A stretch of DNA of 64,000 bases from a virus (IMGVR_UViG_3300046051_000044:1353-65352); one strand, 5' to 3'. Shown: positions 1 through 64,000, numbered from the stretch's first letter. Numbers and translations: made by a program. Notes: generated by a model from the sequence alone, not told the origin.

Positions 1-2
1 CT

Positions 3-635
3 AAGAATCGGTTCATAGCAACGTCAGTCGCGGCGCTTCTCGTCCTAGCAACCGTCGGAGCGCCCCTGTCCGCCGCTGATCACCGCGAGAGCGACGCGTC
101 CGGCGTGTTCGACGGCGTCACAGTCGAGGAGGACAAGAGCGCCGACAACAGCAGCGTAATGGATAGCGTCCGCCGGACCGTCAGCCGGCTCGCTGGCGCT
201 GCGTCCGGCGCGCTCTCGAGGATCACCGACCGCGGAACGGACCAGACCGCGAGCGAGGCCGCCGACAGCGCCCAGGCGGAGTTTAACACCCATAACGGCA
301 CGATCCAGCGCTACATCAACGAGCGGTCTGATGCGAGCACGGGCGCAAACGTCCTCGAGCTGACGTTCAAGATCGACGACGGAGAGGCGACCCGCTACGT
401 CGTCGCGGACGTCAACGGCTCAGACTACGAGAACGCGACGATGGTCTCCCAGACCTCGCGTGAAGTCGACGAAACCTGCACGCTCGAGGATCAGGCCGGC
501 GACAACGCGGCTGCGGAACTCGAGACGTTTGTCGCGGACTACGGGAGCGAGAAGAAGAACATGCCCGCCGGCTATCAGAGGCGCCTGGCCTCTCAGTACG
601 GCGGAGAAGTCGGCTGTAGTTTCGAGGTCCGATAA
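3..635 (+). CDS. Secreted/surface protein, 5'-partial
   Basis: Frame is open from position 3 (KNRFIATSVAALLVLATVGAPLSAAD, signal-peptide-like); the true start lies upstream of the window; acidic body. Confidence 0.7.
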   Translation, partial: KNRFIATSVAALLVLATVGAPLSAADHRESDASGVFDGVTVEEDKSADNSSVMDSVRRTVSRLAGAASGALSRITDRGTDQTASEAADSAQAEFNTHNGTIQRYINERSDASTGANVLELTFKIDDGEATRYVVADVNGSDYENATMVSQTSREVDETCTLEDQAGDNAAAELETFVADYGSEKKNMPAGYQRRLASQYGGEVGCSFEVR

Positions 636-892
636 TGCGCATCCCGACGCCTATCCCCGAGCATTGGGTCTCGGAGTTCAGTCGGCTCTGGCGCGGGACG
701 CTCGTCGACACGGTCTGGAAGATCTTCGTCGTCGGGGCGCTCGTCGGGCTGGTTTACTTCGCGATCCAGCTCGGCGTCAGCGGACTGGCCGCGATCTTCC
801 TCTTCCTACTCGTGTCGGCGCTGATCGTCGATGACATCCGGGAGACGCTCGCGGATGTCTGGAACCGCCGGTTCTGGTCCTACGAACGATGA
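635..892 (+). CDS. Small membrane protein (2 TM)
   Basis: 85 aa with two hydrophobic stretches; start overlaps the previous stop. Confidence 0.75.
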   Translation: MRIPTPIPEHWVSEFSRLWRGTLVDTVWKIFVVGALVGLVYFAIQLGVSGLAAIFLFLLVSALIVDDIRETLADVWNRRFWSYER

Positions 893-1791
893 CACGGATC
901 GCTTCCGCGGCGCTCGCGGCGCTCCTGGTGCTCTCGCTGGTCGCCGGTGTCCCCCTGGCCGCAGCAGACGAAGTCGTCGCCGTCGACGCCGATCACGCGC
1001 TGGCAGAGGAGTCGACGATCGAGGCCTACGCGGACAGCGGCGTCGCGACGGCGGACATCGAGGGGATGGACATGAGCGTCACAGTCGCCCAAGACAGCAA
1101 GCAGGCCGGCCTCGACGGGTTCCATGTCGACTCGACGAAGACCTACCTCCAGGTTCAGTATCGCGAGGAGCGCTCCCGGACGGTCCGGATCTACGTCCCT
1201 GACGACTACATCACTCCTCGGCCGAAGCGTGGCCTCCAGGCCGAGACCAGCCGCCAGACGGCGACGCTCTCCCCGGTCGAGGGGGGCAACTACACTGCGG
1301 TCGAGCTGACGCTCGACGAGCCGACGAACGCGACGTTCGCGATCTCGAAGACGTCGGGCGCTGTCTTCAGCGTCCGCTCGAGAACTCGGGGCTTCCTCGG
1401 CCGGACGTTCGGCGTCTCGCTGCCGAGCTTCGGTGGCGATAACTGGCAGCACGTCGATACCGCGGCGCTCGCGGGCGAGAACACGACAGCAGCAATCAAC
1501 CACGATAACCAGAACATGACTCTCCAGTACGACGCAGATCCAGCGGCAGGCTCCGAGAGCTGGCTCGCTGTCCCGGAGTGTGACGACGGGACCAGCGCCA
1601 GCGTCTGCCAGTTCGAGAAGGAAGGCATCGACAACCGAACTTACCTTCTGAGCACGGCCGAAGACCCGCCGGCGGTCCGGTATCAGGAGGGGGAAGACCC
1701 GATGGCGAACTCGCGGTCGGCCGTCGAGGACATCAAGCGCGTCCCGTCGCGGATCATGGACGACATCAGTAAGCTCTGGGGTGGCTCATGA
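889..1791 (+). CDS. Secreted protein with signal peptide
   Basis: MTRIASAALAALLVLSLVAGVPLAAA signal peptide; ATGA overlap; acidic, beta-rich body. Confidence 0.8.
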   Translation: MTRIASAALAALLVLSLVAGVPLAAADEVVAVDADHALAEESTIEAYADSGVATADIEGMDMSVTVAQDSKQAGLDGFHVDSTKTYLQVQYREERSRTVRIYVPDDYITPRPKRGLQAETSRQTATLSPVEGGNYTAVELTLDEPTNATFAISKTSGAVFSVRSRTRGFLGRTFGVSLPSFGGDNWQHVDTAALAGENTTAAINHDNQNMTLQYDADPAAGSESWLAVPECDDGTSASVCQFEKEGIDNRTYLLSTAEDPPAVRYQEGEDPMANSRSAVEDIKRVPSRIMDDISKLWGGS

Positions 1792-2003
1792 CGTATCTGA
1801 TCAACTACCCCACGACGCTGCGGGGCTTCCTCGCGCTGACGCTGGTTGTCCTGGCGATCCTCTTCTTCGTCTATACCAGTAGCACACTCGCGTTCCTGCT
1901 GGCGATGGCAGGGCTCGCGCTCGCTGCCTACGCGCTCTACATCGCCGCCTTCCGCATCGATCGCAGGCTCCGACACGGGGCGCAGTCGCGAGGTAATCGC
2001 TGA
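1788..2003 (+). CDS. Small membrane protein
   Basis: 71 aa, two TM segments, overlapping start/stop coupling. Confidence 0.75.
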   Translation: MTYLINYPTTLRGFLALTLVVLAILFFVYTSSTLAFLLAMAGLALAAYALYIAAFRIDRRLRHGAQSRGNR

Positions 2004-2272
2004 TGTGGACGGCGCTCCTCGTCGCGCTCCCGCTCTTAGTCGCGGCGATCGGCTACTGGCGGCATCCGACCGTGACGAAACGCTGGTTCGACCGCCTTGT
2101 CGCGTTCCGTCGCATCCTCTTCGTCGCGTTCGCGCTCCTCGTCGCGGTCGTCCTGATCGGGTCAGGCGTTCCGTCGCTGATGTTCCTCGGCGGCGTCGGG
2201 CTCGCCTACGGCGGTCTCTACGTGCTCTACAAGGAGCCACACAAGGAGGTGCAGCGATGGCTGGGCATCTAA
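2003..2272 (+). CDS. Small membrane protein (3 TM)
   Basis: 89 aa, hydrophobic, translationally coupled. Confidence 0.75.
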   Translation: MWTALLVALPLLVAAIGYWRHPTVTKRWFDRLVAFRRILFVAFALLVAVVLIGSGVPSLMFLGGVGLAYGGLYVLYKEPHKEVQRWLGI

Positions 2273-2766
2273 CGCGCGAACTGGAGGAGTTGGAGTCCTC
2301 AATCGTCAACTACCGGCAGGTAGTCAACGATCCGGAGGTCGCCGCTTGGGCGGATCAGAAGTTCGACGGGCTGGACGTGCAGTATCAGCGCCTCGTCGCG
2401 GACAACGGCTACCACAACCATCTGCTGCAGTACATCAGCGAGGCCCATGACTCGCTGACTGGCGATGGCGGCCGAGACGAGCCACTCTGTACGTGCGACC
2501 GGAACTGCGCGCTGAAGCGCGGGACGCTCCCGCCAGCGGTCCGGATGGCGGACTCGCTCGACGACGGCATCTCTGACTTCGAGCTGTCCCACCCCGGGAC
2601 CCCGAGCGTCCTGATCGACGCTCGCGAGGCGTGGTTCGACCGCGCCCGGGAGGTGCGCCGGGAGATGAAGGCCGTCCACATCGCGCTGAAGCGCGAGCGG
2701 CTGCCTGTCGACGCTCAAGCGAAGGACGAGGAGGAAGAGCACGACGCCGGACTGATCCAACCATGA
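2257..2766 (+). CDS. Hypothetical protein with CxCxxxC motif
   Basis: ATG at 2257 (MAGHLTRELEE...), acidic, contains LCTCDRNC. Confidence 0.7.
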   Translation: MAGHLTRELEELESSIVNYRQVVNDPEVAAWADQKFDGLDVQYQRLVADNGYHNHLLQYISEAHDSLTGDGGRDEPLCTCDRNCALKRGTLPPAVRMADSLDDGISDFELSHPGTPSVLIDAREAWFDRAREVRREMKAVHIALKRERLPVDAQAKDEEEEHDAGLIQP

Positions 2767-4892
2767 CAACGAACTCCCGACGCTACGGCGAACACGTCCG
2801 AGAGCAGACGCAGCAAAACCAGCGCTGGCGTCGCGATCGCGTGGTCCGGCAGGCCATCGAGCACGGTAACAAGGCGATGGCCGTCGACGATGACGCCGAA
2901 GCCGCCCGCGTGCTGGCGTACGTCATCCTGCGGGGGCTCCGGAGCAGAGACACCCGCACGCTGGCCGACTACCACGAGCTGCTGTCCGACGATCCGGAGC
3001 TTCCGTGGCACTGGCACGAGCTCAAGTCGTTTGAGGACTCCCCCGAGACGTTCATCGCTCCGCTCGAGGATGGCGCTCGCGGATCGTTCGAAGCCTCGCA
3101 GGCCGCCGAGACCGTCCGGCGGGCATTCGAGGCCGCCGAGTCGATCGCGGCGCATCACGGCATCGTCGAGGATCAACTGCGAAACTACGCGACGGCGACC
3201 GGCTACTCGCTGCAGACGGGCATCCTGCACAAGACCTACGAGTTCGAACACGACAGCGAGATCAGCCTTGTCAGCCGGCGCAGTGGGCTGACGAAGACGC
3301 TCTACAACGGGAAGACCGGTGAAGGGAAGTCAACCTCGCTCGACGGCGAAGTCGAGGATCGGTTCAACAGCGGCTTCAAAGTGATCGACGTCCTCGACAC
3401 GGACGAGCTGGAGTCCGGCGTCTACGACATCCCCCAGCAGCAGGACGTCCTGCGGGACGTCCGGGAGGAGATGGGGCTGCCCGCCGACTTCACCGAGTCT
3501 GACGAGCATGACCGGCCGAACATCGAGATCCTCGTCCCGCTCACCCCGGGGTTAGACGGCGAAGAACTGCCCTTCGACACCGAGTCCGAGCAGTTCACTG
3601 CCCGTCCCTTCACGATCCCCGCGTCGAAGCTCTCGAAGCGCTCGCTGCTCGGCTTCCTGAAGTCAGTCGTGACGAAGCAGCAGGAGGTCGCGATCGGGCT
3701 GGCCTACGAGGAGGTGCGCGACGAAAAGGACGACTGGACGCTGAAGGACCTCGCGCAGAAGGTCCGGCGGCAGAAAGGGCTCGCTGACAACTTCAAGCAT
3801 CGCGTCACGCGGCTGCTGAAGTCGCTGCAGGACAAGGGCTTCATCCGCACGCAGAGCTGCCCGCACGCGCTCGACTGGGAGCGCATCTTCCGCGACATCG
3901 ATACAATCACGGTGTTCTCGACGAGCCTGATGCGCGAGCGCGAAGACAAGCTCATGGTCATCAGCTACCTGTTCCGAGCGCTCTACCATGAGCGGGTCGG
4001 GCTCGGCGAACTCCCCGACTGTGTCGGCGTCGGGCGCGAGCTGCACGAGATCGTCGGCCATCAGAACACGCGCTCGGACGACGAGCGGGAGAAGGCGATC
4101 CAAGAAGGCATCAAAACTGAACTCGGCTACATCCTGCGGAAGAACCGCCACGAGAGCCTCGAGCTGATCATGGACACGCAGGACATCCTCGACCTCGACA
4201 AGTCGATCAGAAAGCGGTTCAATCGCGCCATCACCTTCAGAACGCAGGACGAGTCCCTCGAGGAGCTGTTCAAGCAGGTCGCTGGCAACAAGGGAGCCTA
4301 CTACAACTACGGCGACGTCGTCTCGAAGCACTGGGAGCGCGGTGTCGGGACGGTCCTCGGGAACACTGGGCCGAACGCCGTCGGGAACACGCCGTTCCTC
4401 TCGCCGGTGAAGTTCGCGCCGCCGTCTTGGCACAACTTCGACAACGACGAAGACGATACCGGCTGGGAGAGCCGCGTGAAGTACATCGAGCGCGAAGAAC
4501 TCCGAGCGCACAGCTGGGACACGTCGCTCCCCGACGAGCTGGCGATCGGGATCTCCGAGGACGAGGAGCCAGAGGAAGGCGGCGAGGGCGACGTCGACGA
4601 GCGAGAGCAGGCGATGAACACGTTCGCCGAGGAGTGCATCCTCGACGAGCCTGACGGCGCTGTGCCGGCCGAGGACGTCCGCGAGGCGTTCAAGCAGTTC
4701 GCGAAGGAGAACGACTGGCCGGTCATCGACTCGCCGCAGTCCTTCGGGATGTGGTTCTCCCGAGCCGTCGACTACAACAACGACCGTTTCGGGGGCGTCC
4801 AGCACTACGAGACGATCACCCTGACGCCGGTCGGGGAGAGTTATGCCTTCGAGGACAGCGGCACAGAGGCAGCGGCAGGCCTGTCCGACTGA
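2763..4892 (+). CDS. P-loop ATPase, HerA/FtsK/VirB4-like fold, with C-terminal winged-helix-like domain
   Basis: Walker A NGKTGEGKS; Walker-B-like VGVGRELHE; LIMDTQ motif; the C-terminal FAEECI...VREAFKQFAKEN...SFG segment resembles the D5/primase-helicase C-terminal wHTH. Confidence 0.75.
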   Translation: MTTNSRRYGEHVREQTQQNQRWRRDRVVRQAIEHGNKAMAVDDDAEAARVLAYVILRGLRSRDTRTLADYHELLSDDPELPWHWHELKSFEDSPETFIAPLEDGARGSFEASQAAETVRRAFEAAESIAAHHGIVEDQLRNYATATGYSLQTGILHKTYEFEHDSEISLVSRRSGLTKTLYNGKTGEGKSTSLDGEVEDRFNSGFKVIDVLDTDELESGVYDIPQQQDVLRDVREEMGLPADFTESDEHDRPNIEILVPLTPGLDGEELPFDTESEQFTARPFTIPASKLSKRSLLGFLKSVVTKQQEVAIGLAYEEVRDEKDDWTLKDLAQKVRRQKGLADNFKHRVTRLLKSLQDKGFIRTQSCPHALDWERIFRDIDTITVFSTSLMREREDKLMVISYLFRALYHERVGLGELPDCVGVGRELHEIVGHQNTRSDDEREKAIQEGIKTELGYILRKNRHESLELIMDTQDILDLDKSIRKRFNRAITFRTQDESLEELFKQVAGNKGAYYNYGDVVSKHWERGVGTVLGNTGPNAVGNTPFLSPVKFAPPSWHNFDNDEDDTGWESRVKYIEREELRAHSWDTSLPDELAIGISEDEEPEEGGEGDVDEREQAMNTFAEECILDEPDGAVPAEDVREAFKQFAKENDWPVIDSPQSFGMWFSRAVDYNNDRFGGVQHYETITLTPVGESYAFEDSGTEAAAGLSD

Positions 4893-5210
4893 TGGCTCTG
4901 GGAGACCTCTGAGAGAGACCCGCGACAGACCAAACCACAAGAGCGCGCGCGGACGAGAGACCAGAGACCAGGTGAAGGTACGGTAGGGCTCACTACCTTT
5001 CTACAGCGCGCGCATCATGCGCGAGCGCGGTCTGGAGTTCCCAACAATAACTGTTGTTAGCGAGCGCTGGTCGCTCGCCCGAGGACAGCAGCACTCAGAA
5101 TTTTCTGAACCATGAACAGCACAGTACAGCGGAGAGTAGACCGACCGCCGCCGGTCACTCTCTTTTTTCGATACGGTTTGTAGCGAGCCTACAACCAACC
5201 ACAGAGACTC

Positions 5211-5414
5211 ATGACTAAGCAAACGACAACGGTCGCTCGGCCGAACGCCAGCGGCCTGCAGTGTTACCTGCCAGTATCGTTCGTCGATGACTCAACGTTC
5301 CCGTTCGATCGGGGCGACGAGCTGCAAGCCATCGCGATCCCCGGAACCGGCGTCCTGCTGCTGCCGAACAAGCGGGACATTAGCCCGGAGGAGGTGTCCG
5401 TCCGTGGCGTTTGA
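5211..5414 (+). CDS. AbrB/SpoVT-like small DNA-binding protein
   Basis: 67 aa; QCYLPVSFVDD...FDRGDEL pattern typical of swapped-hairpin regulators. Confidence 0.5.
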   Translation: MTKQTTTVARPNASGLQCYLPVSFVDDSTFPFDRGDELQAIAIPGTGVLLLPNKRDISPEEVSVRGV

Positions 5415-6357
5415 ACGCCTGCGGGCGGCCGCAGGAGGGGCCGTCGATCCGTCGCGATACCACGGCGGCGAGGCCGGGGGAGACGTGGATGAGACGCTCT
5501 CACCCCAGGAGTGGCGCGACCAGACCAAGCGGACGCGGCGGCAGCGACTGGCCGCCCGGAAGCATCAGGCGATCTCCCTGGGCTTCATCGGCCTGATCGC
5601 GACGATGTACATCGTCGTCTTCACCGGGAAGTTCTTCCCGACGCTGAAGGGCAACGCCGTCCTGCTGATGACGGCGAAGTACGGGACGGTCATCCCGATC
5701 ACGGTCGTCCTCGCGACCCGCTGGCAGCGCAACAAGCTCCAGCGATACGACCGACTGGCGCTCCAGCTCCCTGATGGCGGGCGGTCGTACCTGGGACACT
5801 ACAGCGAGGACTCCCAGGGCAACGGCATCTTCCGGCCGATCAAGGGGCATAGTTGGTTCGGACTGAAGGCCGAGCCGCTGACGCTCGGCGATCTCGGTAA
5901 CGACTTCACGCGGACATGGGCGAAACGCGGCCGGGACGCCAGTGAGCCGGCGGCCATCCGGGTCGAGGACGGCCTGACCGTCACGACGAAAGACGCGACC
6001 GGCCGGGTCGTGCTCTCGCTGACCGACGGTCTCGAGATCGACGAGTATGGGCGCGAGAGCGACCTCTACTGCGCCCCGCCGCAAACCGTCGACGAGGAGC
6101 GGTTCAAGGAGCTACGGGCGACGCTCGAGGACTACGTCGGCCGCGTCGATCATCTCGAAGACCGGCTTGACGCGGTCAAAGAGCAGCGAGACGAGTATCG
6201 CGAGGAGGCCGGTAAGCGACGCGAGGAGATCAAGCAGGACATCGTCGAAACGCACGGCGAACTCGCGGAAGCGGGCTTCACGCCCAGCAGCCCCGAACGA
6301 CGGCAGCGACCGGATACGACCAGCCACAACTTCACCCCCGATCTCGATAATGACTAA
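5404..6357 (+). CDS. Membrane protein with C-terminal coiled coil
   Basis: GTG start at 5404; two N-terminal TM segments; heptad-rich C-terminus (LRATLEDYVGRVDHLEDRLDAVKEQRDEY). Confidence 0.75.
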   Translation: MAFERLRAAAGGAVDPSRYHGGEAGGDVDETLSPQEWRDQTKRTRRQRLAARKHQAISLGFIGLIATMYIVVFTGKFFPTLKGNAVLLMTAKYGTVIPITVVLATRWQRNKLQRYDRLALQLPDGGRSYLGHYSEDSQGNGIFRPIKGHSWFGLKAEPLTLGDLGNDFTRTWAKRGRDASEPAAIRVEDGLTVTTKDATGRVVLSLTDGLEIDEYGRESDLYCAPPQTVDEERFKELRATLEDYVGRVDHLEDRLDAVKEQRDEYREEAGKRREEIKQDIVETHGELAEAGFTPSSPERRQRPDTTSHNFTPDLDND

Positions 6358-7897
6358 CGCATACGCGCGCGTAGCAGCAGCGGCGCTCCTGATCCTGACG
6401 ACGATGGCCGGAGCAGGCGTCGCCAGCGCTGTCGCCCAGACACAGACCGCAGAGCGATCCGCAGACCTCGCGATCGAGCAGGACAGCTACGTCGAGAGCG
6501 GCGTCTCGATGAATCAGAGCGGCGATGTCCCGACCTATCGCGTCGAGGGACCCGTCCGGATAGTCCCGAGAAACTTCGCCTACCGGAACGTCACGGACTT
6601 CGGCGCTGACGGCGAGGCGACGCTCTCCTACGACCGGGAGATGGCGCAGTACGAGTTCTCTGCGTCGAAGGCAGGCACCTACGAGGTTTACTGGACGGTC
6701 GCCGAGCGCCGTGAAGTCGCGGTCAACGGGACGAACGAGACCGAGACGCAGCTCGTGAAGGTCCGCTACGTCGCCCGCATCAACATCGATACCGAGGCGA
6801 TGGCGCACATCCCCCAGTCGAAGATCGAGCAGCAGCGGGAAGACGCCGAGAACTGGCGCTCGGTCAACGCCTCGCTCGTCGACATCTTCGGCTCGGACGT
6901 CGATCAGCAGGGCAAGCTACAGGAGGCCGTCTGGTTCTGGAAAGCACAAAAGAACCCGCTTTCGGCGTTCTCCGGACAGTTCTCCGCGGTCATCGTCATG
7001 CTGACCATTACGATCGGCGGACTGCTGGTCGTGGCGACTGGCGGCATCGTCCACTACCTCAGCCGGCGGTCGGACATCCGCTACCGGAACAAACACGAGA
7101 GTCTGAAGGCTGACGAGGCAGATCTGACCGAGCGACTGCTCGAGTTGGACGACCAGGAGCGCAAGCGCGTCATCGCAAACTGGGACTGGCAGGAGATCTT
7201 CTCCGACGATGCGGTCGCGCGCGCGTGGCGCGACACGTTCGGCGAGGACGTCCTCGAGGGACTCGTGAAGTACGGGAGCCTCCGAGAACCGCGGAACCTC
7301 GTCCACGACCGCCTGCAGGCGATGGGGCAGAGCGGCTACGTCGCGGTTGTCGACGAGTCCGTCGCGACGGACGGCGGCGCGGGCGCTGCTGGCGAGGAGA
7401 TCGTCAGCGCGCACATCGAGTCCGAAGACGCTGTCGCGCCCGACGAGGAGACAATCGCGCTCGACGCGCCGGACGACAACCTGCTCGACGCGATCGACTG
7501 GGACGATCCGGTCATGCGCGGCTTCGATCTGGCCTCGGCGGACATCGATCCGGATGCGCTGGAGACAAACCCGCGAGCGCGGTCGCTCGAGGAGCTGCTG
7601 GAGGTCGTCGACGAGCAGCGCGAGGAGTTCGACGACCCCGCTGCCTTCGGAGAGTTCTATCTGGAGTTCGTCCAGTCCCTGCGCGAGCACGAGATCAGCG
7701 ACAAGCAGGGGCGGCCGGACACGCTGCGCTACACCTTCGAGACGCTGCTCCGACAGGCGCAGCTCCTCGAAGACCGGCACGACTTCGCGCTCTTCGAGTT
7801 TGACCGGCAGGCGATCTCGAAGGGGCTCGCAGAACACGACGCCGTCGGCAACGCGTCGGACTACGTCAAGGAGGTGAACGATGGTAAGCACAACTGA
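6350..7897 (+). CDS. Secreted/membrane-anchored protein
   Basis: ATG at 6350; signal peptide; central TM (AVIVMLTITIGGLLVVATGGIV); acidic. Confidence 0.8.
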   Translation: MTNAYARVAAAALLILTTMAGAGVASAVAQTQTAERSADLAIEQDSYVESGVSMNQSGDVPTYRVEGPVRIVPRNFAYRNVTDFGADGEATLSYDREMAQYEFSASKAGTYEVYWTVAERREVAVNGTNETETQLVKVRYVARINIDTEAMAHIPQSKIEQQREDAENWRSVNASLVDIFGSDVDQQGKLQEAVWFWKAQKNPLSAFSGQFSAVIVMLTITIGGLLVVATGGIVHYLSRRSDIRYRNKHESLKADEADLTERLLELDDQERKRVIANWDWQEIFSDDAVARAWRDTFGEDVLEGLVKYGSLREPRNLVHDRLQAMGQSGYVAVVDESVATDGGAGAAGEEIVSAHIESEDAVAPDEETIALDAPDDNLLDAIDWDDPVMRGFDLASADIDPDALETNPRARSLEELLEVVDEQREEFDDPAAFGEFYLEFVQSLREHEISDKQGRPDTLRYTFETLLRQAQLLEDRHDFALFEFDRQAISKGLAEHDAVGNASDYVKEVNDGKHN

Positions 7898-18558: not shown

Positions 18559-20295
18559 TTAGCTCTGATCGTCGCCGCGCTGCTGCTGTACGGACGCGGC
18601 GACATCGGCGAGCGTGACGTCCGCAAGCGCGACGTCAGGGGGTGAGATCTCCGATCCATCGTCGCCCGAGCTGCCGTCGTCGCCGTCGTCGGCTTCATCG
18701 CTGCCGTCCGAGCCATCCGATCCATCCGGGGCGTCCGACCCGTCGCTCGGGTCGTCGTCCGCCCCACCGTACTCGGCGGGGTCGACTTCGTCGCCGTCGA
18801 CGAAGACGGTCGCGTCGCCGTTGAGTTCGAGCGCGGTGATCTCGCCGCTGAAGCGCCCCCCGTCGGTCCCCGACAAGACGACGCCATTCGCTTCGGCCGT
18901 CCCGAAGGTATCCTCCGAGTCGTTCGTCCCCTGCGCCGAATCGTGGGTCAACGACCCGTCGACGACGACGCGCCACGTCGCACGGCTGCCGGTCCCCTCG
19001 ATCTGGAACGTGTGCGGATAGGGGTTCGGTGCGGAGTCGGTGCTGTCGTCGCCGCTTGGAGTCTCGTCTGGCATGTCTGGATCGCTCTCGAAGGGCGTCG
19101 CTGCACGGGGGTCGTATTCGGTCGGTTGCTCGGCATCGCTCTCTTCGAGCCCGGTGACGGCCGTTCCATCCCCGGTATAGAGAGTCTCGCGTGCGATCTC
19201 GACGCAACAGTCCGTCAGCGTGCAGTGCTCGCGGCGATCGTGGTCGAAGACGTGCTCGACGCCGGCGGCCCCACTGATGTCGACGCTCGCCCAGTGGATG
19301 GCGCTGTCCTCGCCGTCGACCCACTCGTACTTGTCCGAGCCGTAGTCGGCGTTTTTGTGGATGAAGGGCCGGCCCTCATCGTGTTGGATGCGCGTGTCGC
19401 GGATCGTGACGTCGCCGCTCGTGAGATGTGTCCGGATCGACGTCGACGAGGTGTCCGTCGACCGGCAGATAAAGTCACAGTCCTCGATGACGGCGCCGGT
19501 CTGATTGTAATTGATTTGCGTCGCGACGAGACAGTCGTGGGCTGCGGTATACGTCCCCGAGTAGTGGTCGATCGCGTCGTGGTCCTGCACCGAGACGCAG
19601 TTCCGAACCGACGACTGCCCGCCGATCCGGAAGTTCGCCATCGCGTTATTTTTGTGATAGCAGCGGATGAAATGCGAGGCCGTACCGTGACCTTGCGTAT
19701 ACCACGGTACGTCGCCGGGTTCGAGTTCGATGTAATTGTCTCTGAAAAATAATTCTCCTTCGTGGTGGTAATCCACGATCCCCATTCCCTTCCCCACGAG
19801 ATGGGTCCCCATGTGAGCAGAGCCGATGCTTTCGACGCGCTCGACCCAGCCCGGCGCGTCGGCTTTGATCCGGACGTTGCATTTCCAGTCGTCGCCGGTC
19901 TCCTCGGCGGGCGTGAAGCCTGTCCAGCGGATGTCATGAACCCACAGTGGGCCTTTCGGCGCGAGATTGATCCCCGGGCCGCTGGTGTCTTCCCCCTCGC
20001 CGTAGTCGGCAACGAAGCCACCGACTTCGATGGGGCCGGGCGCGCCGAAGGCTTTGACGAGCCAGCGATGATTGCCGTCGGTTTCGACGACGCACTCGGC
20101 GCCACTGCCGAGGAGTCGATAGTGCGCGAGGTCGTTGTGCTGCTGATCGCTCGTCAGTCGATGTACCCCGGGCTGCAACTCGACGCGCGTATGACTCTCC
20201 AAGGGGATCGGCGCCCCTGGCTCGACGGTCACGGTATTCCGGATATCCCACTCGATCGTCTCGCGGGGGTCCGGGGCGGATACTGTGCTAGGCAT
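18559..20295 (-). CDS. Parallel beta-helix (pectin-lyase-like) protein with haloarchaeal surface-protein C-terminal domain; candidate depolymerase
   Basis: Beta-helix-like repeats (NNAMANFRIGGQSSVRNC, VIEDCDF, TIRDTRI); C-terminal TFQIEGTG...FSGEITALELNGDATVFVDGDEVDP domain and an Asp/Ser/Gly tail. Confidence 0.65.
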   Translation of the reverse strand: MPSTVSAPDPRETIEWDIRNTVTVEPGAPIPLESHTRVELQPGVHRLTSDQQHNDLAHYRLLGSGAECVVETDGNHRWLVKAFGAPGPIEVGGFVADYGEGEDTSGPGINLAPKGPLWVHDIRWTGFTPAEETGDDWKCNVRIKADAPGWVERVESIGSAHMGTHLVGKGMGIVDYHHEGELFFRDNYIELEPGDVPWYTQGHGTASHFIRCYHKNNAMANFRIGGQSSVRNCVSVQDHDAIDHYSGTYTAAHDCLVATQINYNQTGAVIEDCDFICRSTDTSSTSIRTHLTSGDVTIRDTRIQHDEGRPFIHKNADYGSDKYEWVDGEDSAIHWASVDISGAAGVEHVFDHDRREHCTLTDCCVEIARETLYTGDGTAVTGLEESDAEQPTEYDPRAATPFESDPDMPDETPSGDDSTDSAPNPYPHTFQIEGTGSRATWRVVVDGSLTHDSAQGTNDSEDTFGTAEANGVVLSGTDGGRFSGEITALELNGDATVFVDGDEVDPAEYGGADDDPSDGSDAPDGSDGSDGSDEADDGDDGSSGDDGSEISPPDVALADVTLADVAASVQQQRGDDQS

Positions 20296-46925: not shown

Positions 46926-46967
46926 TCATGGGTCTGCCGCGATTGGGTGTGCTGATCCGGGTCGAGA

Positions 46968-55917: not shown

Positions 55918-56184
55918 ATGCGCGATTCCGGGGGACGGTTGACACAACTTGACGAGCGGATCCTCGAATTGATCCGCGAACACGGCAATCTAACTCCGGG
56001 GGCACTCGCCAAATTCACCGGGAAGAACTCTGACTATATCTCCAGCCGCGCCTCGCGGCTTGTGAAACTCGAACTCCTCACCCGGATCCATCACGGGCTC
56101 TACGGCATCACCGAAATGGGGGAGGCATTCCTTGATGAAGAACTCAACCCGGGAGAACTGCCACCAGACTTGGACAAGAAGTGA
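55918..56184 (+). CDS. phiH1-repressor-like winged-helix regulator
   Basis: MRDSGGRLTQLDERILELIREHGNLTPGAL...YISSRASRLVKLELL...GLYGITEMGEAFLDEEL; divergent from the early run. Confidence 0.8.
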   Translation: MRDSGGRLTQLDERILELIREHGNLTPGALAKFTGKNSDYISSRASRLVKLELLTRIHHGLYGITEMGEAFLDEELNPGELPPDLDKK

Positions 56185-56329
56185 CCTCGCTGTCTGACCC
56201 CACCACCTTCTGAATTGTCGGCACTCTGAGTTACCCCCACGATCCGAATAGCGCCTAGACGAATGGGGGTAACGGGTAAGACGAATCGGTGGGAGCCAGT
56301 CTGCTGGAGAAACTGAATGAGGAGGGTGG

Positions 56330-57073: not shown

Positions 57074-57546
57074 ACGGAGTCTGTTGTAGCAAAATCAGCA
57101 TATATAGCCACCGGTAGCTACACTATCAGATTTAGCAATCCGTCGTTCCCCTACAGTTCGGATTTGGATTTTAGCGTCTATTTTCATCGCTCAGCGCCGA
57201 ACTCGGGGCCGGCGCCCCCGACGACACCGAGCGTAAGAGTGAAGTCCCCGCCCCTCGTAGGGGCGGTGACGATTGCCTGGCCGGCGTCGTCGAATTCCGT
57301 CTTGTCCGCGGCGCTCTGGGCGTGTTTGGCCACGCCCGTCATCGCGCCGTTCGATGCCACTCCTCCCAGAGCCATCATCAGGATGCCTCGTGTTCTCCGT
57401 AGACATCAGCGAGTTCATCGATGAAAGATGTGCCCTTGCATGAAGGTCAAGTCATATTCAAGGGCGACTTCGACGAAAACGACGGCGACTAACGTCAGCC
57501 GAGCGTCTGACGAAGAGTATTGCATCAGGCCGATGCAGGCCTGCAT

Positions 57547-57924
57547 ATGGGCCGCATCACGTTTACAGCAGAGTCTCAGCACGAGGACATCATCGAATCG
57601 GTCCAGTCCGAGGACGGTGTCGAGAGCACGTCCGAAGCCGTCCGGGAGTGCATCACCAGATATGCAGCCCTGCAACAGCGCGTTGCAGACCTGCAACAGG
57701 ACCTCGAAGCCGCCGAAGCCCGCCAGGACGACCTCCGCCGCCAGCTCCAGGCGGCGAACAGTCGCAACGAGGACCACCAAGAACTCGTCGAGTACGTCCA
57801 AGATGAGCGCCGGCTGCAACGCCAGCGCGAGGAACGCAAGCGGATGAAAGAGACAGCTGGCGTGCTCACCCGCGCGAAGTGGTGGGTGACGGGGCTGCCC
57901 GACCCCGAGTCGGACGACGAGTAG
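57547..57924 (+). CDS. Ribbon-helix-helix + coiled-coil protein
   Basis: RITFTAE...STSEAVRECI, followed by a long coiled coil. Confidence 0.7.
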   Translation: MGRITFTAESQHEDIIESVQSEDGVESTSEAVRECITRYAALQQRVADLQQDLEAAEARQDDLRRQLQAANSRNEDHQELVEYVQDERRLQRQREERKRMKETAGVLTRAKWWVTGLPDPESDDE

Positions 57925-57987
57925 CCGGACGTGAGCGGCTGCCTTGGGGAAAATTCCGTCTTGGCGTCGGTCCGAGTAGAGATCTCG

Positions 57988-59496
57988 CTAGTGGCGCAAT
58001 TCGCGCCTCAGTACTTCGAGTTCGTTACGGATGATCTGCCGGATGTCGTCTTCATCAAGCGTATCCAACTCGTGAGGCCTGTCGTCCTCAAGCTCTTCCC
58101 GGGTAACACGACGAATCGTGTCTTCGATCTCGGGCGACTCTCCCGCAATATATTTCTCCCACGTTAGACCGAGTTCCTTTCTCCGCTCATTGTGCTTCTC
58201 ATAGAATTCTCGGCCTACTTTGATGTTTGCTCGATCCCGGCTCATCGGGTAGTTGTATTGAGTGCCTCGAGACAGTCGGAGCAGACGTTCTCTAGTCGCC
58301 ACTCATCTTCGCTATCAGCGTCGACGTTGATTTGGCGGTAGTGAACTGGCTGGGCGTCTGCTTCATGTCCACACTCTGCAACAGCATTCGAGCCGGGGAC
58401 GTGCATCATCCCGTCGTTCCCCGTCACCCAGTGTTCGGCGTCTGCTGGCGGCTGCGGATGCATTTCAGATCGCCTCCAGACGGCCTTCGGGATACGTGTA
58501 AACGGTCGTGCTGTCGTGGTTGCGAAGGTTCTTCGCAAAGACTGCCCCGAAGTCCTGCCCTCGACTGGCCTTCATGGATGCATCTTTTTCCATCACACCG
58601 ACCGTCTGGCTGTCCAACTCGTCGGCGAACACGATCTTAATGACTCGATCGTCGTTCGGATACGAGCTGTTGCACTTGGCAACGGTCTTGTCAATGGCCT
58701 CGATGTAGTATTCGTCTGCTCGCTCGTCGGTAACGCCCACCACGTAGGCTTCGCCGTCATCGCTTCCTTGTTCGACATCGTAGACGCGCTGGCCATCAGC
58801 GAACGCGTCGCCTGAGGTGTTCTGCCTCATGTGTATCCCCATGTATCCCACCGGCTTATAATTTGGGATACATGGGGATATACGGGGAGGTATCGGTCGT
58901 CTATCTTTCAGCGCGGAGAGAACCTCGGCGTTTACCGCGGAGAAGATGTCCTCGATCAAACCTCGCCGGGACGACACGGAGGAGGCGACTAGATATCCGG
59001 GCCGTGTTGCACGAGCCACTCGGAATTCGAGAGTTGCTCGTGATACGAGTTGATGTGATACGTGACCTGCGATCGGTCACGGCCGTCCTCTCCAAACCCG
59101 AGTTCTGCTGCAATCTCGCTGTAAGAGTGGCCCTGCTCCCGGAGCGCGACCACGTTCGCACGCTGCTCAGGGACGCCGTGCTCGCGAAGCTGTGCTGCCC
59201 GCTCGCGCCAGTCTTCAGTTGCCGGCTCACTCATCAGTATCTCCCTCCTGGTGAAGCTCGTGGACTTCCGTGACGCCAGTCAGTTCGGCCTCGCAGCGCG
59301 CACACCGGGGCATCTCCCGCTTTGGGATGCCCCCAGTCACAGGGACGAGATCGCCGCAGTCGGGACAGCCAAGGATCGTCGTTGCCTGCGGGAGCAGCTC
59401 CCGGAGGGACTCGGCGGCTTCACCTCCGAATCCCATATCGACTGTCTCGCCGGTGATGAATTCGACGCGGAACGTGGTGGTATGGTCGTCGGTCAT
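57988..59496 (-). other. Cluster of small ORFs including an HTH protein (58989-59234)
   Basis: 57988-58245, 58242-58463, 58465-58830, 58989-59234 (GHSYSEIAAELG...SQVTYHI), 59227-59496. Confidence 0.6.
58834..58880. promoter_or_regulatory. 17-bp perfect inverted repeat flanking a TATA box
   Basis: TATCCCCATGTATCCCA (58834-50) - CCGGCTTATAATT - TGGGATACATGGGGATA (58864-80), 4 nt upstream of the ATG at 58830. Confidence 0.8.
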
Positions 59497-59498
59497 CG

Positions 59499-60914
59499 TT
59501 ACCCGTAGTAGGGATCGGCGGCCTCTTCGCTGATACGGATGTGGACTTCGTGGTAGTCCCAGGCGTCGCCGGGACGGTGGTGTAAAGTGCGGAGCTCTGA
59601 CTCGTAGCCCGTCGACTGACCGTCAAAGTCAGCCTCCTGCACTCGCTCGCGTGCCTCGCTGGGGACACTCTGGAGGATGCGCTGCCGGCCGACCGGAAGA
59701 CCAGACTCCCAACGCAGCTCTCGGAGTGACCGCTCGATGCGGTCGTCCTCGTCGTCTCGGTCGAAGATGTATCCGATTCCCGTTGCCCGGAGGTCACTGG
59801 CAATCCGCGACGCCGGCTTGTCCGAGACATGCACGCGGACCTCCGAGACGCCGGCAGCATCGCGCAGCACGTCGGTTACTGCCGCGGCGACGTGATAGGG
59901 GTTGTGAGCAGGCGCGTAGACCGTCCAGTCGCGGCTCCGTGCGTATCCCTCATTTTGGACCGCCGCCGAGAAATCTATCGGGATGCGGCCCCCCTCGCGC
60001 GTGACAACATCCGCTATCTCCGCCGTCAGCGGCGAGTCTGCATCGTCGCGCACGTAGACGCCGTCCCCGCGGGGGTCTTCGGGGTCGGCGTCGCGGTAGT
60101 CTCCGGTCGTCTCTGGCTGATAGGCTGGGAGCGGGTCGTCAGCGTCCCCGTCCTCGTAGAGATCGTCGTAGTCTCCCTGGTCAACAGCAAGGCGGCAGAG
60201 CCATTCAGTCCCGGTCGCCCCCCGCGCTCGCGTGGGAACCTGCGGCCGGATGCTAACGTACTGGATCGTGTCGCCGGTATATTCACTCCCGGTTTCCATC
60301 GTGACCCCGAGCAGTTGGTCATAGTGCGTTGACCGACCAGTGTGTGGCGTCCGAGCTTCATCGGCAGTCACGATTCGGCGCGTACCGTTGCGACTCGGTT
60401 CGTCGCCGGCGACGAGATCCCAATCCGTCTCATCGCCGCCGTCGGTCATAACGCCGCCATCGGCAACTGCAACTGACATGTCTTCTGCATCGGCACTGCC
60501 TTCAGTTTCGTTGTCGTCGTGGACACGCCCGTCGTGGACAGCAAGACCGTGTTCGCTGTCGAATTCGCCGCCGCATTCCTCGCACTCGTGGGTTTCGGGC
60601 TCGGGGTAGTAGCGTTCGGGGGTCTCCAGCGCGTCGTCGACGTTGTCCTGGTCAATCTCGACCAGCTCGCCCTCGTGGATGATCCAGTAGACGCGACCTT
60701 TTTCGTTGCCGGAGTGGCTGTAGTAGACACGCTCGATGATGTCGCCAGTCTCGACCGTGACGGTTTCCGTCCCCTGCCCGTAGGGGCTGACGAAATCCCG
60801 ATCAAGGTCGTACTGAGCGTCCGTGTCGGTGATTTCGGCAACCCACTGCTTGTTGCCTTTGTTGATCTCGATGGTCAGTTCGTCGCCGTCCAGAGTGACG
60901 TTGGGTGCAGCCAT
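59499..60914 (-). CDS. Multidomain hypothetical protein with C2H2 zinc finger
   Basis: CEECGGEFDSEHGLAVHDGRVH; acidic. Confidence 0.7.
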   Translation of the reverse strand: MAAPNVTLDGDELTIEINKGNKQWVAEITDTDAQYDLDRDFVSPYGQGTETVTVETGDIIERVYYSHSGNEKGRVYWIIHEGELVEIDQDNVDDALETPERYYPEPETHECEECGGEFDSEHGLAVHDGRVHDDNETEGSADAEDMSVAVADGGVMTDGGDETDWDLVAGDEPSRNGTRRIVTADEARTPHTGRSTHYDQLLGVTMETGSEYTGDTIQYVSIRPQVPTRARGATGTEWLCRLAVDQGDYDDLYEDGDADDPLPAYQPETTGDYRDADPEDPRGDGVYVRDDADSPLTAEIADVVTREGGRIPIDFSAAVQNEGYARSRDWTVYAPAHNPYHVAAAVTDVLRDAAGVSEVRVHVSDKPASRIASDLRATGIGYIFDRDDEDDRIERSLRELRWESGLPVGRQRILQSVPSEARERVQEADFDGQSTGYESELRTLHHRPGDAWDYHEVHIRISEEAADPYYG

Positions 60915-61167
60915 TGTGGTACTCCTCTGTTGCATTTGCTACTACAACACCCAACCACTTAACTCTTGTTGTATCTAGTGGTGCAACAGCAGAAGAGGGT
61001 TGGCACCGCGTAGGGGATCAGCGGCTGGCTGTGTGTCGCGTCGGTGCCTCCCATTTCCTTCGGCGTTTCCAACGGCGTCCAACGGGGGAAATCACAGGAC
61101 TGCGCGGCTTCCAACGGCCACGGAGAGCCGTTCCAACGGCGACGGGCGGCCGCGCCGTTGGAACCAG

Positions 61168-63999
61168 TCAGCGGGGGTGGTAGGTGGTCGGATCGGCGGC
61201 GTGGTCGCCGTCCTCTCTCCGGAGCGCGCCTTGGTCGACCAAGGCCGACAGCCAGTCCTGCATGGCTCGGCGCGACACGTCAAGCTTGGGATCGCCGCTG
61301 GCGGCCGCGAGATCCTGGGCTTCCTTGACGGACACGCCCGCGCCGGCGTCGGCCGCGCTGCGGAGGTGGTCGTAGAACCGCGCGGCCGTCGCCGGCACGT
61401 CAAGGTCGTCCGGCGCGGGAATCCCTCCGTCGTCCCCGGCCGGGTGGTCGCCGGCGTCCCGATCTCCGCCGCCGACCGCGTCGGCGGGGACCGTCATGTC
61501 GGTCCCGATCCGGAGCGACAGGTCGGCCAAGTCGTCGGCCCCCTCGGGAACCTCGAGGATCTCGGCGTGCGGATCGACGGCCCCCCCGTCAAGAGTGATC
61601 TCGGGGATGATCGGCTTCTTGACCGTCCTGTCCCCGCCCGACGGGTAGGAGTCGGCGTCGGTGAACACCGCTCCGGCGTCCTCGAAACGGGCGTGTTCGG
61701 TGCCACTCCCGTCGCGAAGGACGACGTCGCCCGTTTCCTCGTCTTTGATCCAGGCGTTCGACCGACCGCCGGGGCGCGTCATGGCCTCGCCGTCGACCCG
61801 CAAATCCCGCGGAGAGGTGTAGTAGCGCACCTCGCCATCGACGGGATGATCCGACCGGCAGAACGCCGGGTCCGCGCGAAGCGTGTCGGCGACGTTCGCC
61901 GCGTCGTCGGGGCGGGCGAGGACCACGGCCTGCCGGCCCTCGGTCGCCGCCTGGAGGACGTGCTGGGCGGTCATGCCGGCCTTGCTCCGCCCGGTCGAGT
62001 GCTCGGCTTCGAGCCGCGCGACGTCGCCGCCGGTCAGCTGCTCTACCAGGGCGGGCGCGTGCTGCTCCTCGGGGGGCGCGGGGCGGACGAGCGCGTCGGG
62101 GTCGTCGCCACTCGCGTCAAGGATTTCGACGTCGAGCCCGGCCCAGGCCAGCGGCGCGTAGGCGTCCCACAGCAGCAGGCCGTGGCCCGCGCCGCCGGCG
62201 CTTTGGTTCTCCCCGACGGTCGCGAGCGTCGCCCGCGGCGACGTTGCTCGGAGTTCCGGCCCTCCGTCGTGCTCTCGGATCTCGAGCAGGCCGTCGGGGA
62301 CGTGCTGCATGACCTGCCGCCACAGATCCCCGTCGGTCCCGAGGCGATCGGTGACGTCGTCGGGCGTCTCGTCCAGCGCGCTCACGCGGCGCACGACGGC
62401 GGGCCGGGCGTCGCCGAGGGGAACGAAGCCGTCCGGATTGCCAGTCCGACAGGCGGTATCGTAGATGCCTTGGACGGCCGCGCGTTCGACGGCGTCGGTG
62501 ATGTCGAGGCCGTCGCCCTGATCGCCCGCGGCGCCCGCGCCGTAGAAATGCGACTGGGCTTTCTGCTCCTCGGGGGACGACGGCCGTGTCCCATACCGTT
62601 TGACAGAGCGCTGTTTCAGCGCCTCGAGCTCGTCGTCGGTCATGCCGGGGTCGCCGGAGACGTCCGCGCGGGCCTCGGCGATCGGGGGGAAGGCGTCGAC
62701 CTTGTAGGAGTGGGTGAGCTCGTCGTCGGCGTCGCGGGTCCGCATGTAGAACTTGTACGGGCTCATATTGACGAGGTCCTCCCAGTCGACGCCCGGGGAG
62801 TGTTGCGCGGCGATCAGGCGCGCGTCGTCCTGCCCGCCGGGGTTGTAGGAGACGAACGTCTCGCATTGGTTTTCGATCGCTTTCTGCACCTGCTCGGGGA
62901 GCTGGTTCGACGGGTTCTGACAGGCGAGCGTCAGCGGGAAGTCGAACGCGCGCGCTTCCGACAGGATCCCGTGAATGTTCGACTCCTCGGTAACGATCGA
63001 GTCGAACTCGTCACAGACCACGTAAAAGGGAGGCGCGTCGTCGGCCGCCCGGACGGCGACCCACGCCCGGCGGATCAGCGCCGTCGCGAACAGCCGCTTT
63101 TCCGTCTCGCCCGACTGTGGCGCGTTCCGGACCACGAGGACCGTCCCGTCTTCGACGGCGTCTTGGATGGATACCGTCGACTCCCGGGCGCTAATCAGGT
63201 TCCGGATCGCGTCGTTCTGAAGCCATTGTTCCAGGCGTCCGGCCAGCGGCTCCAGCTCGCCCTCGTCCATCTCACTAATCTGCTCGGCGGTATCAGCGAT
63301 AAAGTGGATTCGCTCCTCGGTCATCCACTCGGCGAACCGATCCCGATTTTCCGGGGCCGTGCAACAGCAGGCGAGGTCGAGTAGCGTACAGGTCCGCCCG
63401 GAGCGGGCGAACCCGCGGATCAGCGTCCGGAGGACCCGATCCATCCGCGCGCCCCAATAGTTATCCTGGCCGCCGGCCTGTGCGGCCATCGCGACCAGGT
63501 CGTCCGCGAGCGCCTCGACGGCCGTGGAAAAGGCGCGAGAGCCCTGCTCGGCGTCGCCCGGCACCTCGAGGAAGTTAAACCGAACCTGCTGCTCGTAGTC
63601 GTCGGAGAGGTCGACAAAGACGAAGTCCTCCTCGTCGCGGTCTTCGGGCCACTCTCGAACGAACGCGTCGGCGTCCGTCCCCTTCGGGTCGAAGATCAGC
63701 GCGCCGTGGCCGCGCTGCATGATCTGTGAAACGAAGTTCGTGAGAAAGGTCGTCTTCCCGACGCCGGTCCCCCCGCCGACGAATTGGTGGGTCTTGAGGA
63801 TCGACGGCTCCACGCCAGCTTCGATCCCGTGGCGACTCCCGAAGCCATACCAGTAGGGGTCGCCGGGCGTCCCCTCGTCAAGCATGGCGACTTGCTGCAC
63901 GTCTCGGTCGGCGCCGGCGACCTCTGCCGCATCGAAGTCGAACCGCGGTGTGCCGGGCGGGATCCCCTCGCCCGGGCGGGAGAGCGACCACCGGAGCTT
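61168..63999 (-). CDS. VirD4/TrwB/TraD-like type IV coupling ATPase, 5'-partial
   Basis: Walker A GGTGVGKT; ALIFDPKG; Walker B VVCDEF; EARAFDFPLTLACQ; frame stays open to the window end. Confidence 0.85.
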   Translation of the reverse strand, partial: KLRWSLSRPGEGIPPGTPRFDFDAAEVAGADRDVQQVAMLDEGTPGDPYWYGFGSRHGIEAGVEPSILKTHQFVGGGTGVGKTTFLTNFVSQIMQRGHGALIFDPKGTDADAFVREWPEDRDEEDFVFVDLSDDYEQQVRFNFLEVPGDAEQGSRAFSTAVEALADDLVAMAAQAGGQDNYWGARMDRVLRTLIRGFARSGRTCTLLDLACCCTAPENRDRFAEWMTEERIHFIADTAEQISEMDEGELEPLAGRLEQWLQNDAIRNLISARESTVSIQDAVEDGTVLVVRNAPQSGETEKRLFATALIRRAWVAVRAADDAPPFYVVCDEFDSIVTEESNIHGILSEARAFDFPLTLACQNPSNQLPEQVQKAIENQCETFVSYNPGGQDDARLIAAQHSPGVDWEDLVNMSPYKFYMRTRDADDELTHSYKVDAFPPIAEARADVSGDPGMTDDELEALKQRSVKRYGTRPSSPEEQKAQSHFYGAGAAGDQGDGLDITDAVERAAVQGIYDTACRTGNPDGFVPLGDARPAVVRRVSALDETPDDVTDRLGTDGDLWRQVMQHVPDGLLEIREHDGGPELRATSPRATLATVGENQSAGGAGHGLLLWDAYAPLAWAGLDVEILDASGDDPDALVRPAPPEEQHAPALVEQLTGGDVARLEAEHSTGRSKAGMTAQHVLQAATEGRQAVVLARPDDAANVADTLRADPAFCRSDHPVDGEVRYYTSPRDLRVDGEAMTRPGGRSNAWIKDEETGDVVLRDGSGTEHARFEDAGAVFTDADSYPSGGDRTVKKPIIPEITLDGGAVDPHAEILEVPEGADDLADLSLRIGTDMTVPADAVGGGDRDAGDHPAGDDGGIPAPDDLDVPATAARFYDHLRSAADAGAGVSVKEAQDLAAASGDPKLDVSRRAMQDWLSALVDQGALRREDGDHAADPTTYHPR

Positions 64000-64000
64000 G

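Follow-up and report, generated by a model that had tools for sequence, protein, structure and literature searches.

Conjugating plasmids and packaging viruses are usually regarded as following alternative ways of life, whose costs and host ranges are opposed, and several described haloarchaeal elements bear on this division. The Vertoviridae plasmid-prophages ChaoS9, phiH1 and phiCh1 are temperate tailed viruses that exist as circular plasmids; all are myoviruses, 55-59 kb in size, that encode ParA, RepH/Orc1 and tyrosine recombinases but no type IV secretion system (T4SS). Haloarchaeal T4SS plasmids and islands resembling integrative and conjugative elements (ICEs), among them pHV1 with its 'transfer complex protein' and Halfvol4, share a cluster encoding a small transmembrane protein, TrbL_3, a TraC-like protein and DUF8128-TrwB, and carry integrases and Orc1/Cdc6 but no capsid or tail genes. 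Members of the pR1SE family (apHPVs) disseminate in self-encoded vesicles, have a core that closes with a VirB4/HerA/packaging-ATPase-like protein, often bear defence systems, CRISPR included, beside this core, and can integrate into other replicons (PMC10818511). Here we analyse a stretch of 64,000 nt, IMGVR_UViG_3300046051_000044:1353-65352 (hereafter the window; positions in it carry the prefix w), which is part of a single 80,898-bp IMG/VR virus record (the 80.9-kb contig). The contig carries the packaging-head-tail module of a tailed virus, a T4SS-like cluster, a block shared with plasmids and a CRISPR array.

Genes were called by GC3 bias and their proteins scanned against Pfam, PHROGs and PADLOC; in the atlas comparison, protein clusters were matched by features and by structure (given as TM). 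Run X1 is a halite metagenome, whose depths and unitigs were taken from Logan's independent k=31 graph; X2 and X3 are two other halite samples from the same study. Of the words sampled from w10500-20400, 77% are present in X1, and next to none of the stretch occurs in X2 or X3 apart from the CRISPR repeat. The 80.9-kb contig has a GC content of 65%, and w30000-50000 has no nucleotide match among GenBank phages or in PLSDB. Judged by its protein relatives, the host is a member of Halobacteria, since every one of them is haloarchaeal.

We lean, with a little more than even confidence, toward reading the window as a join of two mobile elements: a plasmid-vesicle-type block with a CRISPR array, and a 64,280-bp tailed virus-plasmid with a T4SS-like cluster. 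The first element (w1 to about w15145) would be the end of a pR1SE-related plasmid block with a HerA-fold ATPase, TnpB and an orphan I-B-type array. The second, which would extend from the repeat at w15146 to the contig end (64,280 bp), is probably a plasmid-like tailed virus, for the most part a co-oriented single genome with DNA methylases, the packaging-head-tail module, virus-like early genes and the T4SS-like cluster. This element may replicate as a circle of about 64 kb, its terminase may package it into tailed particles, and the VirB4/VirD4 machine may additionally be used for contact-dependent DNA transfer or uptake; that both transfer modes work is an inference. The elements could have been joined by homologous recombination within a shared methyltransferase gene, or by the assembler at the repeat.

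The repeat and the unit it delimits

A 121-nt exact direct repeat occurs twice on the contig (Table 1) and is its sole long-range direct repeat of at least 24 nt. In a self-comparison the final 743 nt of the contig match w14524-15266 at 80% identity, the last 121 nt being identical, and the contig stops exactly where the identity of the second repeat copy stops. Both copies form the 5' end of a methyltransferase-like gene (open reading frames ORF236a and ORF236b), and the identity between the two genes increases toward the repeat. Between the copies lie 64,280 bp with the C5 methylase, the Cas4-like nuclease, the virion module, a region of small genes (region D) and the T4SS cluster; the plasmid-shared block (module A), the TnpB gene and the CRISPR array lie outside. 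Every called gene from the small transmembrane protein gene of the T4SS cluster to ORF578, over about 53 kb, is on the minus strand. In the X1 graph the 121-mer is a stand-alone unitig that branches at both ends (two ways in, two out), with a depth of 25 compared with 13.7-16.6 in the left part and 15-21 in the right. An exact-protein look-up beside the repeat returned one Logan contig, which ends near the repeat about 80 nt inside ORF236b, and no match on the other side. The first-pass annotation of the window had recorded no att repeat and had treated the whole window as a possible single 64-kb hybrid. Neither view survives: an att-like repeat exists at w15146-15266 and at the contig end, and the left cluster and the array fall outside the unit that it delimits.

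The left part (w1-15145) consists of the plasmid-shared block, the TnpB gene and the orphan array. From the contig start to w9731, module A is syntenic, at 29-44% amino acid identity, with Natronorubrum daqingense CP019330 and Salinigranum rubrum CP026314, which together with CP040639 are 'incomplete' pR1SE-like elements in Table S3 of Luecking et al. 2023 (PMC10818511). Those three plasmids carry the closest relatives of module A. Its ATPase has four relatives on plasmids, no match in Pfam and no relatives among phages. S8 peptidases are present in the syntenic plasmid relatives, and the apHPV core, made up of the clusters ORF6-9 and ORF17/21/23-25, includes both an S8 peptidase and a VirB4/HerA-like ATPase. 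Module A, within which the contig starts, is therefore best read as a relative of the pR1SE-type (plasmid-vesicle) plasmids, pR1SE itself having been compared by its description. As in these plasmids, its run of secreted and membrane proteins closes with a HerA/VirB4-fold ATPase, and defence cargo adjoins the core; unlike them, module A comprises the distal part of the block only, and three large genes follow the ATPase whereas the pR1SE core ends with it.

Plasmids syntenic with module A lack the right-hand T4SS genes, and plasmids that share the T4SS cluster lack module A. Since each occurs without the other, the two flanks are independent modules and not two halves of a conjugation system, and the idea of one split conjugation locus was dropped. 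The first-pass annotation had described a head-tail module flanked by conjugation- or secretion-like genes; the module, the VirD4-like protein on its right and the HerA-fold ATPase on its left stand as described, but the left cluster matches a pR1SE-like plasmid block and is not of conjugation type.

Elsewhere, the right-hand cluster is a usual part of haloarchaeal plasmids and ICE-like islands. Set against a haloarchaeal, MPF-FATA-like T4SS, it has the VirB4/TraC-family ATPase, the VirD4/TrwB coupling protein and the VirB6/TrbL membrane protein. Homologs of its VirB4-like protein are found on 209 haloarchaeal plasmids, where they are annotated as transfer complex or conjugation proteins, and the VirD4-like proteins of haloarchaeal T4SS plasmids and islands are 35-59% identical; relatives of the VirD4-like gene also occur on metagenome contigs of 88.9 and 39 kb. 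In related loci the gene beside the VirD4-like gene, at the position of the VirB4-like one, bears the TraC-like domain PF26593. A chromosomal island of Haloferax volcanii has the same T4SS cluster with an integrase and Cdc6, and agrees with what is described as Halfvol4, an ICE-like element that lacks capsid genes (PMC12091111). The 64-kb unit differs from all these in embedding the cluster in a virus-type genome, and a VirD4-like profile search of IMG/VR returned only the 80.9-kb contig and the related contig described below. A 231-aa protein gave a weak T4SS_pilin match (E 0.002), below the cut-off.

The virion module (w18559-42346, minus strand) looks complete. ChaoS9 has the closest named large terminase, TerL, and also has in common with the 64-kb unit MuF, the portal and two of the eight distal tail proteins, of 181 and 327 aa, which match ChaoS9 gp31/gp32 and also phrog_18500/18555. 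In contrast to the Vertoviridae, the unit has a predicted tube-only tail and a VirB6/VirB4/VirD4 cluster, and none of their plasmid genes was recognised in it. A siphovirus-type tail is plausible but not proven: the tube protein is assigned by atlas features and structure, and no tail sheath was matched in Pfam or PHROGs, where several of the tail genes have no family. A myovirus, as first suggested by the affinity of TerL to that of ChaoS9, was dropped after the tube-type match of the 445-aa protein. PHROGs gave mostly no match, or families of unknown function, for the tail and region D genes. TerL has 15 relatives in IMG/VR, at 44-77% identity; on plasmids only a broken terminase remnant was found, in a Halocatena defence island.

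A second IMG/VR contig from another metagenome (3300010222_000004, 63,202 bp; hereafter G001) was found with the VirB4-like protein and is read here in reverse orientation. It is collinear with the 64-kb unit, with 96% amino acid identity in the C-terminus of the VirB4-like protein, 70% in the VirD4-like protein and 64-96% in the region D homologs. Between ORF441 (91.5%) and ORF578 (83%), it has a swapped cassette of 24 kb with its own Terminase_3/6N TerL, portal, MuF, scaffold-like protein and tape measure; the portal is 25%, MuF 31% and the tape measure 26-30% identical to those of the 80.9-kb contig. Both versions of the cassette consist of structural genes only, and virus-type genes (ORF441, an endonuclease and phrog_38411) stand on both of its sides. 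In the atlas, ORF441 lies next to clusters of viral proteins, one of them a 'virion structural protein family' (TM 0.79). Because a purely structural cassette differs while being bracketed by conserved virus-type genes, the pattern points to module exchange within one virus genome; it is unlike two inserted proviruses, each of which would have brought in its integrase and early genes. The same T4SS-virion adjacency, with the same intervening 19 kb, is present in both contigs. Comparison of their sequences shows that the head-tail cassette can be exchanged as a block, and that the virion and secretion genes have been inherited together and have diverged as one unit.

G001 also bears on the topology of the unit. 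Past ORF578/ORF577 it continues for about 8.3 kb, including a C5-methylase-like gene, and then reaches a 179-nt match to positions 75129-75306 of the 80.9-kb contig, on the T4SS side. This order and spacing are those expected (about 8.9 kb) if the 64-kb unit closes through the repeat copy in ORF236b. In a tblastx comparison of this tail region with the contig the other matches were compositional noise, and the 179-nt match alone is trustworthy. No CRISPR repeat, module A, left block or integrase was found in G001, whose region D contains two extra TnpB insertions. Near w48600 and, at the homologous place, near position 20000 of G001, the cumulative GC skew changes slope, with gene orientation unchanged; the change could mark an origin, a terminus or a junction of DNA stretches with different histories.

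Ownership of the CRISPR array

The array (repeat GTTTCAGACGAACCCTTGTGGGGTTGAAGG) is presumably of the haloarchaeal I-B kind. No cas operon was seen beside it: the general Pfam and PADLOC scans of the ORFs, none of them a search aimed at cas families, gave only the Cas4-like nuclease and TnpB. Four spacers match tail genes of the virion module, one of them perfectly (Table 1); against G001 and the other fetched loci, the spacers gave no match beyond the contig itself. In X1, module A, TnpB and the first CRISPR repeat stand together on a Logan contig of 13 kb. Because it is linked to module A in this independent assembly and is aimed at tail genes of the virus, the array most likely belongs to the neighbouring pR1SE-related element and not to the virus unit. 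The first-pass annotation had made the owner of the array depend on the identity of the elements.

Most simply, the array against the virus unit is carried by a vesicle-plasmid-like element, or by the replicon that bears module A, and the apparent self-targeting arises from the join of the two elements at the shared methyltransferase gene. CRISPR arrays borne by viruses and plasmids in conflicts between elements offer a parallel, as there too an orphan array on one mobile element is directed against another. The present array differs from the mini-arrays of mobile elements in its size (37 spacers) and in that its own contig holds the target, perfectly matched and preceded by a protospacer-adjacent motif (PAM). 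It would represent a CRISPR array borne by one mobile element and directed at a neighbouring one. What appears in the database as a self-targeting virus with CRISPR is probably two elements joined at a repeat, which matters when IMG/VR is mined for virus-encoded CRISPR.

Two observations on this region stand apart. The CRISPR repeat (w12000-15000) occurs at a depth of 160-190 in X2 and X3 with next to no flanking DNA; its repeat family is common in the halite community. An intact TnpB/Cas12f-like gene without tnpA directly adjoins the leader side of the array (w10199-11398 and w11400-12024).

Competing readings

The most serious competitor, to which we give somewhat less than even weight, takes the whole 80.9-kb contig as one real molecule, a cointegrate or a single replicon, with three modules for dissemination, of vesicle-plasmid-like, virion and T4SS kind, and an array directed at tail genes of the same molecule. 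Haloferax tolerates such self-targeting. The original assembler path runs from ORF236a through the repeat into the methylase, X1 depth is alike on both sides of the repeat (16.6 and 15-21), the two ORF236 genes become more alike toward the repeat, as a crossover there would predict, and integration into other replicons is reported for pR1SE-type plasmids (PMC10818511). Against these stand the perfect spacer match with a functional-type PAM, which would be autoimmune if a cognate I-B effector were present, and the absence of the whole left part from G001; moreover, the join runs through the two-copy repeat, at which an independent graph branches. An ordinary integrated provirus with att sites and an integrase inside a plasmid is very improbable, although tailed proviruses are common on haloarchaeal replicons and an att core is one possible reading of the 121-nt repeat. 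That repeat also encloses the T4SS cluster and not the virion part alone, no further direct repeat of at least 24 nt is available, and no tyrosine or serine recombinase (PF00589, PF00239) was found in a six-frame search of the whole 80.9-kb contig, or in G001. The first-pass annotation was thus correct in reporting no integrase, as it was for host housekeeping genes, none of which turned up in any Pfam scan. In its choice between a provirus inside a plasmid or ICE and one element with two transfer modes, the evidence favours one unit for the virion module and the right-hand VirD4/VirB4 genes, while the left cluster and the array lie outside it. That the virion-VirD4/VirB4 adjacency is a metagenome misassembly is barely conceivable: this is a metagenome contig with one end in a repeat, but the same adjacency and intervening 19 kb recur in a contig from another sample, so that two independent assemblies share the adjacency.

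A different view of the 64-kb unit holds that it is a conjugative-type plasmid or ICE-like chassis with a captured head-tail remnant, possibly defective or domesticated in the manner of a gene transfer agent (GTA). The T4SS cluster is indeed a plasmid and ICE hallmark in haloarchaea, as in Halfvol4 (PMC12091111). No lysis, lysogeny or viral-type replication genes were recognised among the scanned genes, the right half of region D has no match in PHROGs, and the unit exceeds in length the contigs with the closest TerL relatives (17-55 kb). However, both versions keep a full, uninterrupted packaging, head and tail set, one complete cassette having been replaced by another; ORF441, the endonuclease and phrog_38411 flank the cassette on both sides, and no integrase or att site marks a former insertion. 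We regard this view as unlikely, and as weaker than that of a virus-plasmid.

Several points weigh against the virus-plasmid itself. The circularity of the unit is deduced and not seen: the 80.9-kb contig has no terminal overlap, and IMG/VR lists both records as linear, at about 77-78% completeness; the wrap-around of G001 depends on the 179-nt match. Six-frame searches of the 64-kb unit for Cdc6/Orc1, CbiA/ParA-type and Prim-Pol matches found none, and no relaxase family turned up in the general Pfam scans of the ORFs, which included no search aimed at relaxases. With no replication initiator, partition gene or relaxase recognised, the case for a plasmid-like replicon is one of topology. The X1 depths match neither a pure cointegrate nor two separate molecules cleanly. 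The two examples are close relatives, whose co-inheritance could reflect one recent fusion, and the TerL relatives lie on viral contigs of 17-55 kb, a 64-kb genome possibly exceeding the capacity of the capsid. We know of no conjugation through a haloarchaeal VirB6/VirB4/VirD4 cluster. Beyond the window, where the first-pass annotation had looked to the flanking contig for circularity, rep and integrase genes, the T4SS genes and the second repeat copy were found, but no terminal overlap, rep gene or integrase.

If the virus-plasmid reading holds, the element belongs with the known virus-plasmid hybrids, as a variant of them. Bacterial phage-plasmids, phage-ICE tandems and prophage-bearing conjugative megaplasmids likewise mix virion genes with a plasmid or conjugative lifestyle. 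Phage-ICE tandems are accretions of self-sufficient, integrase-bearing units, whereas in the 64-kb unit one gene set would serve both modules, and the host is archaeal. A broader proposal, offered tentatively and unlikely to hold in full, is that some archaeal tailed viruses are simultaneously conjugative-type plasmids: a genome of about 64 kb would exit in siphovirus particles or through its own VirB6/VirB4/VirD4 machine, swap head-tail cassettes and be in conflict with a CRISPR-bearing, vesicle-spread plasmid. Three dissemination strategies would then be in direct contact, possibly on one cointegrate. An archaeal element with intact-looking machinery for both routes would be a system in which to ask how the routes coexist, how the choice between them is regulated and what limits capsid size sets on a plasmid chassis. 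Moreover, such an element, conserved in more than one sample, would enlarge the small number of T4SS-like systems recorded in haloarchaea.

Gene content and neighbouring observations

Table 1. Features of the 80.9-kb contig in order of position (w, window coordinate; contig, coordinate of the 80.9-kb contig outside the window)
Feature	Position	Strand	Evidence and remarks
Module A, operon of signal-peptide and transmembrane proteins	w3..9731	+	cut by contig start; synteny with plasmids
HerA/FtsK/VirB4-fold ATPase of module A	w2763..4892	+	Walker A GKTGEGKS; atlas features and structure, DUF87/HerA, TM up to 0.83
TnpB / Cas12f-like RuvC nuclease	w10199..11398	-	PF07282 E 1.1e-23; PADLOC Cas12f models E 7e-42
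CRISPR array	w12025..14511	+	37-38 repeats, 30-nt repeat
ORF236a, methyltransferase-like	w14545..15255	-	weak methyltransferase matches; adjoins CRISPR array
121-nt exact direct repeat, copy 1	w15146..15266
C5 cytosine DNA methylase-like	w15277..16134	-	PF00145 E 1.1e-9; PADLOC MTase_II
PD-(D/E)XK / Cas4-like nuclease	w17660..18358	+	PF12705 E 4e-11; Cas4 models E 6e-7
ORF578, last gene of tail block	w18559..20295	-	no family match
Distal tail genes (327, 181, 73, 507, 109, 218, 447 aa)	w20320..25919	-	downstream of tape measure gene
Target of spacer 31, 327-aa tail gene	w20441-20476		3 mismatches; 5' TTC
Target of spacer 35, 507-aa tail gene	w22277-22310		2 mismatches; 5' TTC
Target of spacer 23, 447-aa tail gene	w25372-25403		1 mismatch; 5' TTC
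Tape measure protein, 1242 aa	w25925..29653	-	PF10145 E 4e-22
Target of spacer 16, tape measure gene	w28763-28798		0 mismatches; 5' TTC
Two small genes, candidate tail assembly chaperones	w29935..30923	-	position between tube and tape measure; no family match
Major tail (tube) protein, 445 aa	w30993..32330	-	phrog_34360 E 5e-49; atlas clusters bearing Phage_tube_2, TM 0.52/0.80
Head-tail connector genes	w32391..34369	-	include HK97 gp10-like, w33345-33911, PF04883 E 2e-5
Major capsid protein, HK97-type, 275 aa	w34381..35208	-	PF25209 Phage_capsid_4, 29 bits (cut-off 27)
Coiled-coil protein, 440 aa, scaffold candidate	w35683..37005	-	position and weak coiled-coil match
Mu-F-like minor head protein	w37013..37849	-	PF04233 E 1.4e-14
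Portal protein	w37846..39732	-	25% identity to ChaoS9 portal, E 3e-25
TerL	w39760..41487	-	47% to Halobacterium virus ChaoS9 TerL, E 1e-137; in Pfam only weak AAA_30
Small-terminase candidate, 210 aa	w41714..42346	-	conserved in 7 related viral contigs, immediately upstream of TerL
ORF441, virus-type protein	w42756..44081	-	other edge of swapped cassette
Region D, about 30 small co-oriented genes	w44088..60935	-	endonuclease, HTH_10 regulator, HNH-MCM-WH protein, ORF478
VirD4/TrwB-like coupling ATPase (DUF8128-TrwB), 1351 aa	w61168..65223, past window end	-	PF10412 E 1.4e-10, 40-41 bits (cut-off 20.5)
VirB4/TraC-like ATPase, 1185 aa	contig 66512-70069		AAA_10 30.5 bits (cut-off 27.5); TraG P-loop
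TrbL/VirB6-like polytopic membrane protein	contig ~70070-71400		45%, E 4e-96, to a PF19590-bearing protein; direct profile match sub-threshold, E 0.0026
Small transmembrane protein of T4SS cluster	contig 71449-72144
ORF236b	contig 80177-80887		80%-identical copy of ORF236a; contig right end
121-nt repeat, copy 2	contig 80778-80898		final 121 nt of contig; 64,280 nt from copy 1

Some genes of the unit have relatives in other settings. Homologs of ORF441 at 41-42% identity occur in Nanohaloarchaeota, one of them named (Ca. Nanosalina); one such homolog lies on a nanohaloarchaeal chromosome with GatB and FtsZ as neighbours, and another Logan contig was uninformative. In region D, a 222-aa protein (w48975-49643, minus strand) combines an HNH endonuclease domain (PF14279/PF01844) with the C-terminal winged helix of archaeal MCM (PF21120, E 3.9e-8); a winged-helix segment with 56% identity is present on the Natronorubrum plasmid. 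At the end of the region, the three-gene block ORF478-ORF89-ORF81 (w58989-60935, minus strand) is found at 72-91% amino acid identity on LMAX01000007.1, where no VirD4-like gene is adjacent. With ORF478 as a marker, genome contigs gave only a stray contig of 2.7 kb, and metagenome contigs gave the three-gene block without VirD4; the block is a mobile sub-module. An AlphaFold single-sequence model of ORF478 was too poor for use (pLDDT 40). ORF478 is unrelated to the NrS-1-type primase-polymerase that follows VirD4 in a relative.

ORF578 is a candidate fibre or receptor-binding protein. Within it, X1 contains two haplotypes of w19033-19223, at depths of 10.3 and 6.1, with 19 differences that represent strain variation. 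Directly downstream of ORF236b, a DUF6884 protein (contig 79669-80154, minus strand; PF21818 E 1e-30; PADLOC candidate PDC-M57A E 2e-19) may serve the virus-plasmid unit as defence or anti-defence cargo. Near the T4SS cluster, a 551-aa protein (contig 73080-74735, plus strand) with a weak pectate-lyase-like match is a distant paralogue (23%) of the ORF578 family and may be a second adhesin or fibre-like protein.

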